Positions 9,116-63,456 of a stretch of DNA of 64,000 nucleotides are shown piece after piece (position 1 is the stretch's first letter; every line of letters begins with the position of its first letter). The DNA is from Felis catus. Its lineage: Eukaryota. Made by a program: the position numbers and the translations under genes. Where the stretch lies: contig NC_058368.1 of assembly GCF_018350175.1 (NCBI RefSeq), positions 10,416,001 to 10,480,000 of the forward strand. The letters run 5' to 3'. The notes under the pieces are model-generated. The model saw only the letters and a program-made list of their open reading frames with translations. It had not been told where the DNA came from and ran no database searches.

Positions 9116-9232
9116 TTTTTTTTTTTTAATTAAAGAGGTTATTTTTAAGCTCTACACCCAACGTGGGGCTTGAACCTACAGCCCTGAGATCAAGAGTCGC
9201 ACGCTCCACTGACTGAGCCAGCCAGGCACCCC
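9116..9232 (-). mobile_element. Short CAN-SINE lacking the CT tract
   Basis: tRNA-like head plus poly-T; TSD CATTATCTCATT at 9104-9115 and 9234-9245. Confidence 0.9.
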
Positions 9233-51400: not shown

Positions 51401-54400
51401 CAATGATAATAAGGACTTAGACACCCCACTTACATCGGTGGGTAGACCATCCCAACAGAAAGTAAGTAATCAGTGGCTTTGAATGACACATGGACCAGAT
51501 GGATCTAACTGATATATTTACAACATACTATCCTAAACCAGTGGAATATGCATTCTCCAAGTGCAGATGTAACATTCTCCCGGATAGCTCACATGTTAGG
51601 CCAGAAAATAAGCCTCAGCAAGTTCACAAAGATTCCAATCATATTCATCTTTTCCAACCATAATACTATGAAACTAGAAATCAACCACAAGAAAACAAAA
51701 TCTGGAAAGAACACAAATACATGGAGGTCAAATAACATGCTACTAAACAATAAACAGGTTAAAAACAACAAAAAAAAGTAAAAATATACATGGAGACCAT
51801 TGAAAATAAAAATGGTTGGGGTACCTGGGTGGCTTGGTTGGTTAAGCATCTGACTTTGGCTCAGGTCATGATCTCACAGTCCATGAGTTCAAGCCCTGTG
51901 TCAGGCTCTGTGCTGACAGCTGAGATCGGATTCTGTCTGTCTCTCTCTTTTTCTCTGTCTCTCCCCCGCTCGTGCTCTGTCTCTCTCTCTGTCTCTCTCA
52001 AAAATAAACAAACATTTAAAAAAAAAAGAAAAATGGTGGTCCAAAATCTTTGGGATGCATACAAAAGCTGTTCTAAGAGGGAAATTTATAGCTATATTGG
52101 CCTAACTCAAGAAGAAGAATCTCAAACAATCTAACCTTATAGCTAAAGGGGCAAGAAAAAGCAAAATTAAACCCCAAATTGGTAGAAGGAAATAATAAAA
52201 ATTAGATCAGAAATTAACAAAATAGAAACTAAAAACATAGAGCAGATTATCAATGAAATCCAGGAGATGGTTCTTTGAAAAGAATAAAATTGATAAACCT
52301 TTAGCCAGACACATGGAAACAAACAAAACATCAGACTCAAAATCAAAAATGAAAGAGGAGAAATGACAGACTATAGAAATACAAAGTATTATAAGAGACT
52401 ATTATGAAAAACCATATGCCATGCTGAACAACCTAGAAGAAATAAATTCCTAGAAACATACAACCTCCCAGAACTGAATTGGAAAGAAATCGAAAATTTG
52501 AACAAAGTGATTACCGGCAAGGAAATTGAATCCCAACAAACAAAAGTCCAGACCCAAATGTTGAATTCTACCAAACATTTAAAGAAAAGTTAACACCTAT
52601 TCTTCTCAAACTATTCCAAAAAATAGAAGAGGAAGAAAAGCTTCCAAATTCATTCTATGAGGCCAGCATTACCCTGATACCAAAACCGATAAACATGCTA
52701 GAAAAAAGGAGAACTACAAGCCAATATCCTGATGAACATAGATGCAAAAATCGTCAATAAAATATCAGCAGACTGAATCCAACAATACATTAAAATCATT
52801 CACCACGATCAAGTGGGATTTATTCCCAGGATGCAAGAGTGGTTTGTATTTGAAAATCAGTAGGATATATCACATTAAGGGAAAGGATAAAAACCATATG
52901 ATCATTTCAATAGATGCAGAAAAACCATTTGACAAAGTACAACATCCACTCACGATAAAAACCCTCAACAACATAGGTTTAGAGGGACCATACCTCAGCC
53001 TAATAAAGGCCGTATGTGAAAAATCCACAACATCATACTCAATGATGCAAAACAGCTTTTCCTATAGGATCAGAAATAAGGATGTCCACTCTTGCCACTT
53101 TTATTTAACATAGTACTGGAAGTCCTAACCACAGAAATCAGACAAGAAATAAAAGGCATTCATATTGGTGAGGAAGAAGCAGAACTTCCACTATATGTAG
53201 AGGACATAATACCCTATATAGAAAACCCTAAGACTCCCAAGAAAAAACTACTAAAACTGATAAATGAATTCAGTGAGGTCACAGGTTGCAAAAATCAATG
53301 TACAGAAATCAGTTGCATTTCTAGACATTAATGATGAAGTAGAAATTAATGCCATTTATAATTGCACCAAAAAAAAAAAAAAAAAAAAAACAAAAAAAAC
53401 CAAACACCTTGGAATGAACTTAACCAAAGAGGTGAAAGACCTGAACTCTGAAAACCATAAACCACTGATGAAAGAAATTGAGGACACAAACAAATAGAAA
53501 GATATTACATGCTCAGGGATTGGGGGAACAAATATTATTTAAAGGTCCATACTACTCAAAGCAATTTATAGATTCAGTGCAATCCCTATCAAAATACCAA
53601 CAGCAGTTTTCACAGAACTAGAACAAATAATCCTAAAATTTGTATGGAACCACAAAATACCCCTAATAGCCAAAGCAATCCTAAGAGGAAACTAGAGATA
53701 TCACAATCCCAGATTAAGATATACTGCAAAGCCATAACAATTAAAACCTGTAAGGTACCGGCACAAAAATAGACACAAAGATCAATAGACGAGAGAGCCC
53801 AGAAAGAAACCCACAATTATACGGTCCATTAATCTACAACAAAGGCAAGAATATGCAATGGGAAAAAGTCTCTTCAAAAAACGATGCTAGGAAAACTGGA
53901 CAGCTAAAATAATGCTAATAATGAAATAATGCAAAAATAAGCCGAACCACTGTCTTACACCGTACACAAAAATAAACTCTAAATTAAAGGCCTAAATGTA
54001 AGACCTGAAACCATAAAAATCCTAGAAGAGAGCATAGGTAGTAACTTTTATGACATTGGCTATTGCAACATTTTTCTAGATAGGTCTCCTGAGGCAAGGG
54101 AGAGGAAAGCAAAAATAAACTATTGGCGACTTTGTATCAAAATTAAAAGCTTCTGCCTAGCAAAGGAACAATCAACAAAATGAAAAGACAACCTACTGAA
54201 TGGGGGAAGGTATGTGCAAATGATGTATCTAAAAAGGCGTAGTATCCAAAATATATAGAGAAGTTTTACAACTTAAAACCAAAACCACAAATAATCCAGT
54301 TAAAAACTGGGCAGAAGACATGAACAGACATTTCTCCAAAGAAGACAGATGGCCAGCAGACATGTTGAAAAGGTGTTCAATGTCACTAATCAGAGACATG

Positions 54401-54766
54401 CAAATCAAAACCACAGTAAGTTATTACCTTATATGTGTCAGAATGGCTAGAATCCAACATACAAGAAGCAACAAGTATTGGTGATGATTTAGAAAAAAGA
54501 ACAATCATACACTGTTGGTGGGAGTGCAGACTGGTGCAGCTTTTGTGGATAACACAGTGGAGGTTCCTTAAAAAATTAAAAATAGAATTGCTATATGATT
54601 GAGTAGTTCCACTACTGGGTTTTTTACCCAAAGAGTATGAAACCATTATTTCAAATACATATATGCACTCCTGTGTTTCTTGAAACTATTTAGAAGAGCC
54701 CAAATATGAAAGCAACCTCAGTATCCATTGTGTCCACTGATAAATGAATGGATAAAGAGGTAGTGT

Positions 54767-54804
<38 letters not shown>

Positions 54805-55151
54805 GATTATTAACCATAAAAAAGAATGAAATCTTGCCATGTGCAATAACATGCATGGATCTAAAGGGTAAAATGCTAAGTGAAATAAATCAGAGAATGA
54901 CAGATACCATATACTTTCACTCCTGTGTGGAATTTAAGAAACAGAATGAACAAAGAAAAATAGACAAAACCCCCAGACTCTTAAATCTAGAATATAAACT
55001 GGTGGTTTGGGTAGAACTAAACTGGTGGGATTGGGAGGGGGAATGGATGAAACAGATGATAAGCACCGAGTAATGTATAGGATTGTTGCATCACTATATC
55101 GTATGCCTAAAACTAATAGGACACTGTACATTAATTATACTGGGGTTAAAA
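48481..55151 (+). mobile_element. Essentially full-length but decayed carnivore L1 (5' UTR, ORF1, ORF2 EN/RT, 3' UTR)
   Basis: EN: YISIITLNVNGLNAPIKRHRVTEWIKK...CLQETH; RT: NHMIISIDAEKPFDKVQHP and [11 protein letters not shown]; many stops/frameshifts; perfect 16-bp TSD AAATAGCAATGGAAAA at 48465-48480 and 55152-55167. Confidence 0.93.
51818..52028 (+). mobile_element. CAN-SINE inserted in L1 ORF2
   Basis: ggggtacctgggtggcttggttggtt head, CT tract, A tail; short TSD aaaaatggt. Confidence 0.9.
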
Positions 55152-55167
55152 AAATAGCAATGGAAAA

Positions 55168-56080
55168 AGTATCCAGTGGAGAAGTGAAATAACAACTCGA
55201 CTGGAATATCACCAGTGAAGAACAGAAGGGCCAGACACAGTGTCACACATACATAATACTGTGACTGGGAACATACATGCTAGACTTTGTCATGAGGGAA
55301 CACCAGACAAACCCAATATGAGGATCATTATGTTAAAAACAGGGGAGGTGCATTTATTATGAAAAATACCAGTGTCATGAAAGACAAAGAGAAGCTGAAT
55401 AACTATTATAGATGAAGGGGGAATAAAGGGATATGATAAATGCAATAAGGGATCCTGGGGTTCATCCTGTACTGGAGGGAAAATGAGCCACAATGAACAT
55501 CGGGTCAAGTGATAACCTTGGAATATGGGTGGTAGCTTAGATGAAAGCATTTGTTTTCAGGTTTGGAATTCTAATTAAGGCAGCTGTGAACCTTTGTGTA
55601 CATATCTTTGTATAGATACCTGTTAATTTATCTTGGCTAAATACCTATGAGTGGAATGCCTGGGACATATAGTAGCTATATGTTTTAACTTTTTAAGAAA
55701 TTTACTGAATGAATGTTAAAGTTTTTGAACTCTTAATTTTTCCCATTTTAAGGAAATACACAATGATGTATTTCATGTTCTGAGGGGGAAAGGGACATAA
55801 TGTATGAGGTTTACTCCCAAATACTTTAGAAAAGAGAAAATCTATCTATATATACACACACGTACACAATGCACATGTATACACACATGCATACATGTAT
55901 ATATACACAGATGAATATCTGTCTACAAAGATTGAGAGAGAACGATAAAGCAAATGGTGTAGAACTAACAACTGGCTAATTTAGGTAAAGGATATATAAA
56001 AGAGTTCTTTCCACTGTACTACCCTTGGAATTCTTCTGTAATCTTGAAGTTTTTCCAAATAAAATGTTAAAAAATAAAAG
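55168..56080 (+). mobile_element. Continuation of the older L1MC-like 3' region
   Basis: catgagggaacaccagacaaacccaat...gtcatgaaagacaaagagaagctg...gataaagcaaatggtg...ttttccaaataaaatgttaaaaaa. Confidence 0.65.
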
Positions 56081-56350
56081 CCATAATAGGTTTGAGTGGA
56101 ATATTATCTGGCTTCCAAAAAATCGGATAGCAGCTAACAAAATGAAGCATAAAAATCATATGATCATCTCAATAGATGTGTGAAAAGCACTTGACAAGAT
56201 TCAACATCCATTTAGGATAAAAACTCTCCAACAAAAGTGGTGTGTTCCCACTAAATCAAACATAATAAAGTCCGTATGTGAAAAACTGATAGCCAAGATC
56301 ATCCTCGGTGATGAAAAACAGAACTTTTCCCCTATGATTGGAAAAAAGAT

Positions 56351-56459
56351 GGGGTGTCTGGGTGGCTCAGTCAGCTAAGCATTTGACTCTTGATCTCAGG
56401 TCATGAGTTCAAACTCTGCATTGGGTTCCACACTGGGCGTGGAGCCTACTAAAAAAAAA
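56351..56459 (+). mobile_element. Short CAN-SINE
   Basis: ggggtgtctgggtggctcagtc...gagcctact(A)n. Confidence 0.85.
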
Positions 56460-56897
56460 TGAGGTCTTCTCTCACCACTATATTCAACATAGTACTAGAA
56501 GTCCTAGCCGTGGTAGTCTAACAAGAAATAAGAGGCATTCATACTGGTAAAGAAGAAGTTTAACTGTCACTGTTTTTAGATGACATGATACTATACTTGA
56601 AAATCTTAAAGATTCCACCAAAAAACTACTAGAGGTAATAAATGAATTCACTAAAGTTGCAAGATTCAAAATTTATGCCCAGAAATCGGTAGTGTTTCTA
56701 TACACTAACAACAAAGTCACAGAAATTAAGAACATAGCGTTTACAATTGTACCAAAAAAAATAAAACACCTACGAATAAACTTAACCAAAGAGGTGAAAA
56801 AAGACAACCTACTTAATGGGAGGAGAAGATATTTGGAAATGATATCGAATAAGGGGTTAATATCCAAAATATATAAAGAACTCCTACAACTCAACAC

Positions 56898-56940
<43 letters not shown>

Positions 56941-56961
56941 AGTTAAAAAATGGGCAGAGGA

Positions 56962-57180
56962 GGAGTGCCTGGGTGGCTCAGTCGGTTAAGCATCCGACTT
57001 CAGCTCAGGTCATGATCTCACAGCTTGTGTGTCCTAGCCCCGCGTCGGGCTCTGTGCTGACAGCTCGGAGCCTGGAGCCTGCTTCGGATTCTGTCTCCAG
57101 CTCTCTCTGTCCCTCCCTTACTTGCTCTCTCTCTCTCTCTCTCTCTCTCAAATATAAATAAAAACATTAAAAAATTAAAA
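56962..57180 (+). mobile_element. CAN-SINE in L1 ORF2
   Basis: TSD aaaaaatgggcagagga (56945-56961) / aaaaaataggcagagga (57181-57197). Confidence 0.92.
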
Positions 57181-59794
57181 AAAAAATAGGCAGAGGACCT
57201 GAATAGATATTTCTCCAAAGACGACCAACAGGTGACCAACAGACACATGAAAAGATGCTCAATATCAATAACTTTGAAGGCACTTCAAATAAAAACCACA
57301 ACGAGATATCATTGCACAACTGTCAGAATGGCTAAAATCAAACAAGAAACAAGTGTTGACAAAGATGGAGAGACAAAGGAACCCTTTTGCCCTGCTGGTG
57401 CACATGCAAACTGGTGCAGCCACTGTGGAAAACAGTATGGAGGTTCCTCACAAAGTTAAAAATAGCAATACCATATGATCTGATAATTCTATTATTGGGT
57501 ATTTATGCGGGGAAAAGGAAAACACTAATTTGAAAAGATATATGCACCCCTATGTTTATTACAGTATTATTTACAAAAGCCCAGACATGGAAGCAACCCA
57601 AGTGTCCATCGATAGGTAAATGGATAAACATGTGGTGTATATATCTATAGTGGAATATTACTCAAAGATCTATCTTGCAATTTGGACAACATGGGTGGAC
57701 CTAGAGGGTATTAAGTGAAATAAGGTATTCGTCTTTCTCAGGCTGACTTATGATTCCACTAATAAGCATAATGTAAAAAAATAAAAAGTAGAATCAGAAC
57801 TATAAATACAGAGAACTGATGGTTGCCAGAGAGGAGGGGAGTGGGGCTCTGGGCAAAATGTGTGAAGGGTAGGGGAGATACAGACCTCCAGTTATGGAAG
57901 GAGTCAGTCATGGGAACGAAAAACAGAGCATGGGGAATACAGTAAATGTAACAGCAATGTAATTAATGGGACAGATGGTAGCTATACTTGGGGTGAGCAT
58001 AACATAATGTATAAACTTGTCAAATCACTAAGTTGTACATCTGAAACTTTGGTAGTATTGTGTGTCCAGTATATGCAAAATCAGTATTATAAGCTGTTAA
58101 AGTCTATATGCAGCACTGTGTTCATATAAATTTGATAGCACGTAATCTAAAGTGTTGCTGTACTATTTTTCTTCATTTCTGTGCCTCACAATTGCCTGAA
58201 ATGGTAACAGATTGTGAATAAAGTTCCTTTCCTGGATTAATAGCCAATCCATTTGGATAGAATTAGATATCTGTTTTATCCACATTTACAGTTTTTAGCA
58301 AAATAAAGTATATGAGGGTTGTCAGACTCCGTTTATGATTCCTCAGCTTTAAAATGATATTGTGAGTAGGGAAAGGGTTGAGGTAATAAGAAACCCAGAT
58401 GAGATGTTAAATCCCAGTTATTTTAACCAAAGAAATTACAAGTTGTGGACTGAATTGGTATTTTTATAATATGCAGAAGAAAGAGAAATACGTTTCTTCT
58501 TAGGTCAAGAAGTAGATATAAATTTGCCCTAGAGGTTTTTGAAGTTTTGTTTGTTTTTTGTTGGTGTTTTGTTTTTTTTAAACACAAACTTTTACCAGCC
58601 AAAGGCCACAGTTTCCTTAAAGAGCTATAAGAATAAATTCTCTATAACCAAATGGCGTCTTACTAGGTATCTGCATATTTACTTACCTTTCTCCGCAGAG
58701 TTATTCGCTAATTTCCTAAGGATGGATTCCAAACTGGGTGCCCAGAATGTTTACCTTGTGTGCCCAAAACAGGATAGTTTTAAGGATAACGTTTTCTGGC
58801 CACTCAGAAACCGTCAGTATTGTCAGAGGCCTTGACCTGCAGACGCATATAAACATGATCAGCAAACTGGTCAACTCTTAGCACCACATTTTAAGGCAAT
58901 TTTTTCATACATTAAATTGGTTTTCTTCGCTTTCAGCTTTAGGTTTATTGGCTGGGGTATTTGTGTAAGATGCACGAGTGTGGATTGAAGCGATGTCCTT
59001 CTTTCCACTTTGTGCATCTCCACTTGGGTTTCTTAAGACCCCACCTGTCCCCCAAAAGAAGAAAAGTGAAATCCTAGAACACTAGTGTTCTAGATGTTAA
59101 TACTTCCCTGTAAGAATTTATGATTAATAACGTAGAGAAGTCCTTGATATCCTATCTCCCTCTTGGAGATACGCAATGCTCATCAGGCTTGAGAAACATT
59201 GGAATTTACTTAGCTAATTAAAAAATTTTAATCCAAAACTGATCACGGAACATCTTTTTTTGGGGGAACACTGATTAATACCACGAGAGAACCTAGGATT
59301 TGGTGGTGTGTGACCCAGAAAGCTCTAGTTTAGAATAGTGGAAGGACTTTACAAGGCGTTTGTAAACGGTACAAGTTCTTAAAACATGGGAAAACTAGCC
59401 CTTCTTAATATTAGCCTTTGTCTCACCTTTGAAAGGATACTTCTAGATTTTATTTTCCTATGAAATCTTTTTCTTCACCCTCATGGCAGCTCTAGCTACA
59501 GGCATTTCTCTGACCAGCTCCTGGATATTCTCACTGCCCTTTTAAAGCTATCTCGTTGACATAGGACAAAGAAATACAGGTGCCAGAAGGTATATACATA
59601 AGTAGACGTAAAAAGACAACTTATGTGGCCTTACTCGGGGGAAACAGATGCGTGGTTGTGCACCGTAATTGAAAAGTTTCCTGGAACGTCTAAGAAAATC
59701 CATTTGCCCACCCGTCAGCCACGCGCCTGACATGGACCTCATTTGTATCTCGAAATTTCTGTTTGGGGGCCATTAAAATTTAAAAAGTACTAAG

Positions 59795-60164
59795 TGTTAG
59801 AAAGGGGTGGAGGTTTATAATGTATCCTCCAAACCAGGAAGGTACATTAATACCGAAACATGAAGCAAAGCTGTTCTATACCGTTCGCAGTGTTTTCTTC
59901 AGGGTAACTTACCGGCAGGCAGTCGAGTGGGCCAACGGACGGAAGATCCAGGCGGTAATATGCTCCTAATCTCCGCCCCTATTCCCAGCCTTTATCTGGA
60001 CCTTCCCCCAGCTCTTATGGAGTGAGGGGCGTGGTGGGGAGGTCATGGGTAGTTATCTTAAGTGGCACCATCTGTGCACCCGATAGCCGCCAGTTATCCA
60101 AAGTGGTGCCACCTGTGCAAGATGGCGTCCCACAGATGGAGTCAATGTTGTTAGCACTCCCACA
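59795..60164 (-). mobile_element. ERV 3' LTR (370 bp)
   Basis: TG...CA termini; shares TGTTAGAA, TAATGTATCCTCC, CGGTAATATGC, AAGTGGCACCA and AGATGGAGTCA blocks with the 5' LTR. Confidence 0.85.
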
Positions 60165-60176
60165 TTCCACCTCTGG
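60165..60176 (-). other. Polypurine tract (minus strand ...CCAGAGGTGGAA|TG)
   Basis: Directly abuts the 3' LTR; resembles class III PPTs (GGGGTGGAC|TG type). Confidence 0.7.
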
Positions 60177-60336
60177 CATCTTTTTAGCCCATGCCATCTT
60201 TGCCCGCCATTCTTTCACAATGGCCTTAGAGCCAGATGTCAGGAAGTGACTTGTACCCCCCTGCCACAGCAGCAGTATAAATAGCAACGTGAGTTGAACC
60301 AGTACCACCCCTGGTTTTTCACCATTCCTCATTCTT

Positions 60337-60540
60337 TGTTTTAATGTGTATTTAAGAGAGAGAGAGAGCACATGCAAGGGGCGGGGAGGGGGAAGAGAGA
60401 GACAGAAAGACTCCTAAGCAGGCTCTATGCTGTCAGCGCAGAGCCTGACTCAGGGATCCATCCCGTGAACCATGAGATCATGGCCTGAGCCAAAGTCAAG
60501 AGTCAGATGCTTAACCCACTGGGGCACCCAGGCGCCCTGA
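60337..60540 (-). mobile_element. CAN-SINE inserted in the ERV
   Basis: Perfect 16-bp TSD ACCATTCCTCATTCTT at 60321-60336 and 60541-60556. Confidence 0.94.
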
Positions 60541-61516
60541 ACCATTCCTCATTCTTGAGGGGTAGGGGTAATGACCCCTCTAGCTGCTTCCTGCTGGAAA
60601 AGGGTGTAGAGCAGGATTTCACGAATTAAGTTGCCATTGCATCCCACTGCAGATATTCCCTACAGCTCAGCTGAGCGCCCATCCTTTGTAACCACTGTTT
60701 TGGAAGTCTTGTATATAGTCTTAGCATCTCATTCTACATTTTATAACAAGGTCAGTTAGGTCCGTTCAGTTAAACAGTGGTCTCTTTTCAGGAAGTGGTC
60801 CTGCCAATGTGATTTCAAAGTCAGGTTTGTAGAGTGCAAGCAGGTAGTAAGTGAGCCGTATATGCACAGAAGCCAGAAGAATTCGGGATCTAGCCCCTGG
60901 TTTTATAGGTAAACAATAAACATTCAACCAGAAATAGAATCTAACACCCATAGAAGTGTGTTACTGAAATATTTTTTTCTAAAATCACCCTCATTTCTAT
61001 CAAAGGTAGTCAAATTAAGACTAAGTTGTTTGTAAAACAAGTCCACTTTTAACAAACTTGGCCTAAATGTTTACATGCGTGCAACAAGAATGGTGATGGG
61101 CCATTTGGGTTCTTTTAAGTCTGCTTTTCTGGAACTTCTCATAGGGAATTTCAGTTTGAGCCTTTTACAGCCTTTGGAGGCCAGAAGCCACGTCACATAC
61201 TTGCCATCAGACCCACCTGCAATACCTTTAATTTGAATTAAGTCCTCTCTTCTTGAGGTCCCCAAGTGACCTTCCTGACTTGCACGGTAGGGCTCTCAGG
61301 AACCTGTAAGCAAGGTAGCAGGCCATTTTTTTCCAAGGAATTTCCTTGGCTCTATAAAGTCAACCTTAGTTCCTTAGGGCCGTTTGGCCATATTTGAGTC
61401 TATACGTGTCTCTTTCAAATGTGACATTCCAGTCAAAGCCTTGGTAATCAAGGTTTCCAATGGTGTCCTGTTATAAGAACATATTGTTATTGAACTTACG
61501 CAAATAACTGTAATTG

Positions 61517-61800
61517 ATTTCCCATTGTATTGTTACCACAAGCCCCAGCCAAACCCTTCTGGATGTGCACTTACATCCAATTCACCACTAACACCTGGCA
61601 TTAATACCCTCGGGGCCTAGTTATTTTACTACCATTTTTGCCTTTATTTCTCCCCCCCACCCCCCGCCAAATTTTGAGGCATTTCCATAGATAAATGTGC
61701 ATTTAGCCAGTGAATATTAGAGCTAGCACAGTCTGATGGTTAGTGAAAGACAAATAGTTAATAATGGGGCCTCCAGTTGTCCACTGTTGCATGCACTAGA
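61517..61800 (-). pseudogene. Protease remnant fused by deletion to an RT-RNase H tether remnant
   Basis: DNWRPH...QTVLALIFTG / KCTFIYGNASKF (decayed DTGA-type protease), then GELDVSAHPEGFGWGLW*Q at about 61520-61590. Confidence 0.65.
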
Positions 61801-61939
61801 GGGAAACGCTGGCCTAACCCTTAGTTTCTAGGAATAGTCTGTGTCCACCCCGAAATTTTTCCATTAGCAGAGGGGCACTGGGCAGCACACCCAACTTTTT
61901 TAGCCTGCCTTCAAGGAAGTAAACTGCTTTCCATCAGGC

Positions 61940-62580
61940 GATGCCTTCTGGAGGCTCAGCAAGACCAACTTGGGTTGTCTATATTTTCTCTCGGGGTCCC
62001 AGATAATATTCGGTATTGCTCCCATTGTTTACAAATCTTGATAGGCCCCCTTTCTGCCATTTTCTCATCAGTGGGATCGTTTTTCCCTCTTTTTTAATCT
62101 ATTTCCCTCATAAGGGATTCTCTGAATTTCACTTAAGTCTGCCACCATAGTAGCTACCGTAGCAATGGGCCATTTAGCCACAGGGGCAAGAACAACCTTT
62201 AAAGTCCCATACCATGCTCCTGGGGCTGAGATACGGTCATTCATACAAGAGGAAAGTCATTCTTCATTTGGGCCACCAAAATGCTGCGTGTAAATAGCAC
62301 ACTTCATCCCTAGTTCTTCCACAGAGGTCTGCTGCAACAGAAGGGAGGGAACAGCCTCGTTAGGCCAGGTTTTCTTAATGCTAGCATTTATCCAATCAGT
62401 CAGATTAGCAAAGTGCCTGCAGTTCTCGACCACGCCTGCCGTATATAATCTTTCATCACCAGGCAGGTTCAGCAGTGGCTGAGGCCACATTTTCATCTCG
62501 AATCCATTCAGCATAATACCATCTCCTCCACAGTCCTAAGACCCAAGCTGCCACCCCTTCTTGGCCCTTTTGCTTCACCA
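61940..62580 (-). pseudogene. Degenerate class III ERV gag
   Basis: AWVLGLW..DGIMLNGFEM, NLTDWINASIKKTWPNEA, ELGMKCAIY...GPNEE (ORF 62257-62514) and SGTPRENID resemble ERV-L/ERV-S Gag; frameshifted. Confidence 0.7.
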
Positions 62581-62774
62581 CCATTTCAGACTCGTGTTGG
62601 TTAGGGCGTTTCTGTACCCACACGCTGGTCTGAAACGCTCACAAGACCTGGCCGAATCTCCTGGCTAGCAAGCTTGGGCTTTCCCCCAAGGGACCACAGG
62701 CTTTCCCTGCGTGGACTGTGGGCTTCTCCTGGCATCGCCCCCTTTACCCCTCCCTGGCTTGTTTCATTTTCAGT

Positions 62775-62792
62775 CTCCTGTCCGCTACACCA
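62775..62792 (-). other. Primer-binding site, tRNA-Ser-like (TGGTGTAGCGGACAGGAG)
   Basis: 2 nt from the LTR end, begins TGG; resembles the complement of tRNA-Ser 3' ends (TGGCGTAGTCGGCAGGAT, recalled) with several mismatches. Confidence 0.7.
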
Positions 62793-62794
62793 AG

Positions 62795-63135
62795 TGTTAG
62801 AAGCTGGAGGAGGGTCAGTAATGTATCCTCCAGACTGAGAAGGCACTTTAATGCTGAAAAAGGAAGCAAGCCACTCCAAGCTGTTTACGGTTTTATTCAG
62901 GGAAACTTACTGATGGTCAGTCTATCAGTCAGGACGGTAATATGCGGCTATTCTCTGCCACTCTCCAGGTTTTATGGAGCTAGGGGCATGGGGGTGCCCT
63001 CACAGGGTAGCTATCTAAAGTGGCACCACCTGGGCAGGGGCTCTCTGCTATTATCTAAAGTGGCTCATTCAGTGCGCCAGAGGCGAGGACAAGATGGAGG
63101 GCCAAGATGGAGTCAGTGTTGTCAGCGCTCCTACG
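62795..63135 (-). promoter_or_regulatory. ERV 5' LTR (341 bp)
   Basis: Ends ...TTCTAACA on the minus strand; minus-strand ATAAAA (TATA-like, 62970-62975) followed by AATAAA (62892-62897); homologous to 59795-60164. Confidence 0.85.
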
Positions 63136-63456
63136 CCAAGTACATCTGAAGAGATGTGACGGTTCACGCTCACTGAGAAACAGGACTGGTAGACGTGAGC
63201 TAAACAGTACGCTGGCCACCTCAACTTCGTTAACCTGCCACCCTACCCACCCAATGGAGGCAGCCATGTTCTGGCAGGGGCTTATTAAAACCGGGGAGTA
63301 AGCCCCTTGTTTTTTAGTTTCTCTTCTGTTTCCAGGAATCTACAGTGTCCACTTTTTTTCTTCTTCTTTTTAAGTGAATTTCTTCCGTAAATCACTTGAA
63401 CTTCATCTCTAAGCGATTTCCGTACAGTAGTATATAACGTGACCGGTGGGATGTGA

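Follow-up and report, generated by a model that had tools for sequence, protein, structure and literature searches.

Does a single decayed provirus in the cat genome combine sequences of two retroviral classes and, if so, how were they brought together? The question is raised by an element found at 59795-63135, on the minus strand of the 64,000-nt stretch of Felis catus DNA (from NC_058368.1) analysed here, referred to as the window. An earlier note had described it as a class III (ERV-S-like) shell carrying an ERV1/MER4-type internal segment. This reading is right in outline: the element is a genuine, long-dead retroviral insertion, very likely chimeric, in that two retroviral classes contributed to it, and is probably a template-switch recombinant, a class III/class I hybrid of a type already known from human repeats. 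The novelty attached to it was overstated, as hybrids of classes I and III, HERV-S x MER4I among them, are already on record. Nothing points to a present-day function; no gene is intact, and divergence between the LTRs has reached a quarter.

The class III shell

All the parts previously listed, i.e. LTRs, primer binding site (PBS), gag, protease, tether, polypurine tract and 5-bp flanks, were found in place; unless otherwise indicated, all features reported below lie on the minus strand. The 5' LTR (62795-63135, 341 bp) ends in CA, has a mutated first base and carries AATAAA at offset 238, while the 3' LTR (59795-60164, 370 bp) starts with TG and ends with CA. Local alignment of the pair gave a score of 99, compared with a maximum of 25 among 200 shuffles, and four scoring schemes placed the identity between 74 and 78%, over 323-324 ungapped columns. 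The two LTRs are set apart by block indels of 13-25 bp. An internal repeat, with a spacing of about 41 bp, is seen in both (62965-63076 and 60008-60119).

The target site duplication (TSD) was evaluated by comparing the flanks. The 5-mers at 63136-63140 (5' copy) and 59790-59794 (3' copy) are equal at 4 of 5 positions, with one transition, as had been proposed; the corresponding figures are 1 of 4 for 4-mers and 2 of 6 for 6-mers. This evidence is modest, because the 5-mer following the 5' LTR (62790-62794, composed of spacer and PBS start) is equal to the left copy and nearly equal to the right one, a likeness which is probably a coincidence. TSDs of 5 bp are a mark of class III, and are made by some class I families too. 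The possibility that the left LTR is a solo LTR with a TSD of its own was ruled out, as no second LTR is found upstream and PBS and gag directly follow.

The PBS (62775-62792) is decayed. By-eye counts gave 13 of 18 bases in common with a HERV-S PBS typed as Ser, and 12 of 18 with an unrelated, low-scoring HUERS-P3 PBS; the fit to tRNA-Ser is presumably better if a one-base slip is allowed. Judging from these matches, tRNA-Ser is the likely primer. The polypurine tract is located at 60165-60185.

The coding remnants were compared with the HERV-S consensus puteins of supplement 3 of PMC4724089, motif by motif and by eye, with no scored alignment. The motifs VAAWVLGLW and DCGGDG of gag, CTFIYGN of the protease, and ELDV and GFGWGLW of the tether follow one another in this order. 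The gag remnant (61820-62590) is ERV-S-like and interrupted by frameshifts and stops. In it, WVLGLW is only 215 bp away from the PBS end, yet about 200 residues into the HERV-S Gag; therefore, the 5' part of gag has been deleted too. No zinc knuckle (CCHC) was found in three frames of gag, although decay could also have erased one. The protease remnant (61612-61815, CTFIYGN at 61701) is frameshifted and without a catalytic motif, its C-terminal part being deleted. It abuts, near 61612, the remnant of the tether between reverse transcriptase (RT) and RNase H (61517-61612), recognised against HERV-S Pol by ELDV at 61583 and GFGWGLW at 61556. Neither YxDD nor D[TS]GA occurs in any minus-strand frame of the element. 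Protease and tether being adjacent, RT must have been deleted, in agreement with the earlier note; the part of pol in which a dUTPase would be sought is gone as well.

What had been called a hydrophobic tail is instead a remnant of the env transmembrane/cytoplasmic tail (60263-60310), with CYLYCCCG at 60286, 99 nt before the 3' LTR. LYCCCG also closes the Env putein of HERVL32, and is found in no other putein visible in the supplements of PMC4724089. The tail alone survives, no ISD being present in the env remnant. Matches to the consensus proteins of HERV-S (Gag, Pro and Pol) and HERVL32 (Env), as seen by eye at the motif level, support the assignment of the shell to the ERV-S group of class III. 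Profile searches returned no Pfam match at curated cut-offs in 11 frames of the element and no Rfam match within it. Word-based protein searches scored none of 1617, 406 and 1 candidates, the first two covering longer proteins only, which suits fragments poorly, and the third being the search across the tether-block junction described below.

The internal block and its SPRE-like element

A block that appears to be foreign, a putative class I (ERV1) 3' internal region, separates the tether from the env tail (60541-61515). The earlier description of a non-coding block of about 800 bp was correct as to its presence and lack of coding sequence, but the limit set at 60700 was wrong and made the block about 150 bp too short: it reaches about 60541, and probably continues for a few bases beyond a carnivore SINE (60337-60540), overlooked in the earlier list of parts. 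The SINE, which we take to be a SINEC of the feliform type, is a later insertion, bounded by a perfect 16-bp TSD (60556-60541 and 60336-60321).

No recognisable coding sequence is present in the block, six frames of 61515-60541 giving no Pfam match, and a protein search across the junction between tether and block yielded one candidate and no match. The G content is 21%, compared with 28.5% in gag-pro, and the difference in composition is significant (p=0.003). As had been stated, the block has no LTRs or TSD of its own: the longest word common to its end zones is 6 nt, which is ordinary for random 51-mers. Retroposition of the block by L1 was ruled out, as polyA, U3-R and TSD are all missing. 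The block presumably resembles MER4-group internal sequence, in proviral sense. Scans of viral, metagenome and genome collections without mammalian loci, by using DNA patterns, returned 0, 0, 1, 3 and 0 stretches; the four loci were discarded as chance matches, since they agree at the pattern alone and show a bacterial CpG content.

A 13-nt word from the 3' end of the block led, through PMC8579622, to the identification of an SPRE-like element (60561-60617). As described there, SPREs (syncytin post-transcriptional regulatory elements) consist of a 17-nt core and two C-rich motifs, and are located near the 3' ends of ERVs, after env. The core in the cat element (60597-60581) is the sole match in the window, where 0.03 are expected, and its flanks contain 8 and 7 C per 20 nt on either side, against a background of 20%. 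The likeness to the published SPRE, a sequence match only, concerns the core (15 of 17 positions) and the two C-rich flanks near the 3' end; the differences are two core mismatches and the class III-bounded setting. Folding of a 69-mer containing the element gave a z of -2.2, with 6 of 200 shuffles equally good; according to PMC8579622, SPREs share no common structure.

Among the families listed in Table S1 of PMC8579622, 29 curated Dfam families carry an SPRE, 24 of class I, including MER41-int, MER50-int, PRIMA41 and PABL_B, and 5 murid (class II); none of those listed is named ERVL or ERV3, HERVL18 does not appear among them, and the 349 further families, among the rows inspected, are de novo and unclassified. 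The class of these families is by itself no proof of a second event, because the env captured by HERV-S is PRIMA41-like, and both PRIMA41 and PABL_B carry an SPRE. The argument lies in the position: the SPRE-like element is found upstream of the class III env tail, and not after env, and is therefore not the shell's own, so that a second donor is needed. The block thus ends like a class I 3' region, placed ahead of the shell's own env end, which supports chimerism. The presence of an SPRE-like element inside a class III shell is the one fresh point of this locus.

A class I origin, as proposed by the earlier note for the whole block, is accordingly supported at its 3' end, where about 60 of 975 bases are backed by a computed match; the remaining bases have a putative likeness to the MER4 group. 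It is very unlikely that the block had no second donor and consists of decayed class III sequence or of host DNA, its SPRE-like match having arisen by chance or come down from an old class I env capture by ERV-S. Such an origin would agree with the lack of any coding or DNA match for the block in the searches run. It would leave to chance a site for which 0.03 matches are expected per 64 kb, and which has C-rich flanks and lies upstream of the env tail; moreover, GFWS and QLW, the usual class III continuation of the tether, are absent in all frames after about 61517, and HERVL18 is not an SPRE family.

A proposed route to the hybrid

The reading that we favour, with a probability of about 0.6, is that of a dead, non-autonomous provirus, generated by recombination between two co-packaged RNAs, one ERV-S-like (class III) and the other of class I (ERV1, probably of the MER4 group). 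It builds on what is directly observed, namely the parts, their order and sense, and the SPRE-like motif; template switching, a helper and a MER4-group donor are what we infer from them. During minus-strand synthesis, RT would have begun on the class III RNA, copying U3, the purine tract and some 150 nt of env tail; it would then have moved over to the ERV1 RNA, entering it a short way upstream of the ERV1 purine tract. A purine-rich run at 60320-60305 may have been the landing site of this first switch. About 1 kb of the ERV1 3' internal region, including the SPRE-like element, would then have been copied, before a second switch back to the class III RNA at the tether, so that RNase H, integrase and the greater part of env would have been replaced. 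Separate deletions would account for the missing RT and 5' gag. A class III helper, possibly a CarERVR1-like virus, would have primed and integrated the recombinant, producing the 5-bp TSD; the SINE would have been gained after insertion, and decay would have followed. A helper of this class could copy and integrate the recombinant because LTRs, PBS and polypurine tract all stayed class III.

The proviral sense of the block, and its lack of LTR, polyA and TSD, speak for recombination. Co-packaging and template switching are stated in PMC4724089 to be the usual cause of ERV mosaics, and carnivore families catalogued in RepeatMasker are available for both likely parents, namely CarERVR1 (ERVL) and CarERV4 (ERV1, near MER65), according to the tables of PMC5753468.

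A nested insertion, in which an ERV1 provirus, or an ERV1 RNA moved by L1, entered a class III provirus, would have to be followed by deletions taking away not only the ERV1 LTRs and 5' part but also RNase H, integrase and env. Old proviruses often receive secondary insertions (PMC4724089), and in this element a SINE did arrive and three or more deletions took place. The two extra deletions needed, one of them ending almost exactly at the donor purine tract, together with the absence of an LTR piece, polyA tail or TSD at both ends and with the sense orientation, make this route unlikely.

The recombination reading can be carried further. An uncatalogued, early-carnivore class III family may have caught an SPRE-bearing class I 3' end, kept it for RNA output and spread to many loci by means of an ERV-S helper, an extension which we consider rather improbable. 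If true, SPREs would be recorded for the first time in a family bounded by class III sequence; a cis-regulatory RNA element, rather than a gene, would have been taken across retroviral classes, with a bearing on the proposal, made in PMC8579622, that SPREs spread via recombination between endogenous elements.

Relatives, age and known systems

An exhaustive phmmer search of 1.84 billion proteins with gag returned 27 at E<=0.001, comprising the cat locus itself and 26 non-self relatives. No names were found on the 55 members of the 10 clusters looked up, out of 27. By tblastn, 24 of 24 non-self representatives tried mapped to 62584-61820. When 17 of the 26 relatives were placed in a tree together with the cat copy, 15 of 18 rows formed a star-like cluster of decayed copies, with three more intact sequences outside it. 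The latter, P0021, P0022 and P0028, are ERV-S-like Gag fragments, unbroken for 186 residues in P0021. The cat copy joins P0004, P0003 and P0012 (support 93/91, bootstrap unsettled). P0029, 92% identical over 86 residues and with an off-frame stretch in common with the cat copy, is probably an orthologue in a close species, on the strength of this identity. On these alignments, the shell belongs to a multicopy family; the gag relatives say nothing on the block.

Searches based on structure added little. The gag alignment found no matches among PDB sequences, the model obtained was uninformative (pLDDT 61.6, pTM 0.29) and, used as a low-confidence query for Foldseek, gave no matches at E<=0.001 in PDB and BFVD; the best value for P0021 in the ESM Atlas (0.82) is at chance level. 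Scans for related loci, in collections without mammalian loci, confirmed 0 of 10 and 0 of 80 candidates.

Whether the chimera itself spread as a family is a separate point, on which we lean slightly towards spread. A one-off hybrid, which entered the genome a single time, or very few times, without later amplification, the gag relatives being ordinary deleted ERV-S copies, has a substantial, though less than even, chance of being correct. By-eye inspection revealed the 7-codon gag gap of the cat copy in only one of the 13 non-self representatives covering the site (P0003), the other 12 being without it; the nearest relatives, P0004, P0003 and P0012, could be orthologues in other carnivores; and the cat genome has only 6 SPRE matches at E<1e-5 in Table S1 of PMC8579622, which argues against many well-kept copies. 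The gag gap, however, is silent on the block, old copies would drop below the SPRE threshold, and every cis element for mobilisation in trans is retained. P0003 clusters with P0032, and this cluster has in common with the cat copy the gap (62310-62340) and, apparently, the upstream gag junction (about 62575), at 58-63% protein identity; it may represent a distant orthologue or else a sub-lineage carrying the deletion.

The hybrid was compared with known systems. HERV-S/HERVL18 (LTR18), HERVL32 and HERVL66 share with the cat element the Gag, protease and tether motifs, probably the Ser-type PBS, and the lack of a zinc knuckle, and HERVL32 also the LYCCCG env tail. Recombination between class III and class I also gave rise to HERV-S, HERVL32 and HERVL66 (PMC4724089, PMC5753468), and ERV1 x ERV3 recombinants are reported as the extreme of ERV recombination (PMC5753468). 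In the HERV-S group, however, it was an env gene that came from class I, whereas the cat element has received non-coding 3' internal sequence, set ahead of the env tail, and has lost RT, RNase H, integrase and most of env. LTR57-int (HERV57I), together with MER21 and MER31, is of the same hybrid type, but LTR57, set apart here by its description, has a Leu PBS and pol remains. Harlequin is a mosaic with MER4I pieces, attributed in PMC4724089 to co-packaging and polymerase jumps, that spread after recombination; its parts are all class I and primate, in contrast with the class III shell found here. CarERVR1, compared by name and match rows only, is a carnivore class III family like the cat shell, the top protease match of several HERV-S chains, with one env segment match in common with PABL, and differs in its long ORF (514-1810) (PMC5753468). 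It is the best candidate for the parent or the helper. The provirus of CARenvV was ruled out as a parent, being gamma-like (PMC9604959).

Repeat families of such size are usually already in libraries, and there is nearly an even chance that an existing carnivore or eutherian consensus of RepeatMasker/Repbase, CarERVR/CarERV or LTR57/MER21-like, already covers the element in full, with the block, and that the cat locus is one of its copies. The 26 non-self gag relatives, the 15 of 18 star-like rows and the existence of CarERVR1 and CarERVR1_LTR agree with this. CarERVR1, with its ORF of 1,300 residues, is not itself the deleted form, and a Leu PBS speaks against LTR57. Such a description would be compatible with the recombination mechanism; novelty alone would go. 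No paper on this hybrid was found in the literature searched, Repbase/Dfam entries, where such a family would be recorded, lying outside that search, and the odds that the element is already a library consensus are about even. For repeat curation, it is a clean case of a class III shell with a class I filling, which may need a library entry of its own. Many loci with the same junctions would mean that RNAs of classes I and III were packaged together in early carnivores, with a non-coding RNA element passing from one class to the other.

The LTR pair shows a K2P distance of 0.27-0.32 (0.23-0.28, CpG excluded). While this age range is observed in substitutions, the years are derived: at a rate of 2.2e-9 substitutions per site per year, the insertion would be roughly 50-75 million years old (52-73 from K2P), and would fall close to the carnivore radiation or precede it. 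The LTRs differ by 41 transitions and 40 transversions, a near-even ratio that points to some misalignment and, perhaps, an inflated age. Sampled words were present at 97-99% in 20 of 24 listed sequencing runs, all from one organism, of which 14 may be the source of the window itself and the other 6 come from three studies; the insertion thus looks fixed in that species. The SINE within the element, inserted some 40 bp downstream from the core of the SPRE-like element, would provide a minimum age when assigned to a subfamily.

The element has decayed L1 and tRNA-derived carnivore SINEs as neighbours, which marks the window as mammalian. On the plus strand, at 52000-58100 of the window, the 3' halves of two decayed L1 copies are found, with SINEs inserted; one of the SINEs, near 56940-57200, lies within L1 and has a flanking duplication. 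A lone Rfam tRNA match at 9155-9227, on the minus strand (37.3 bits), may be a tRNA pseudogene or the head of a SINE.
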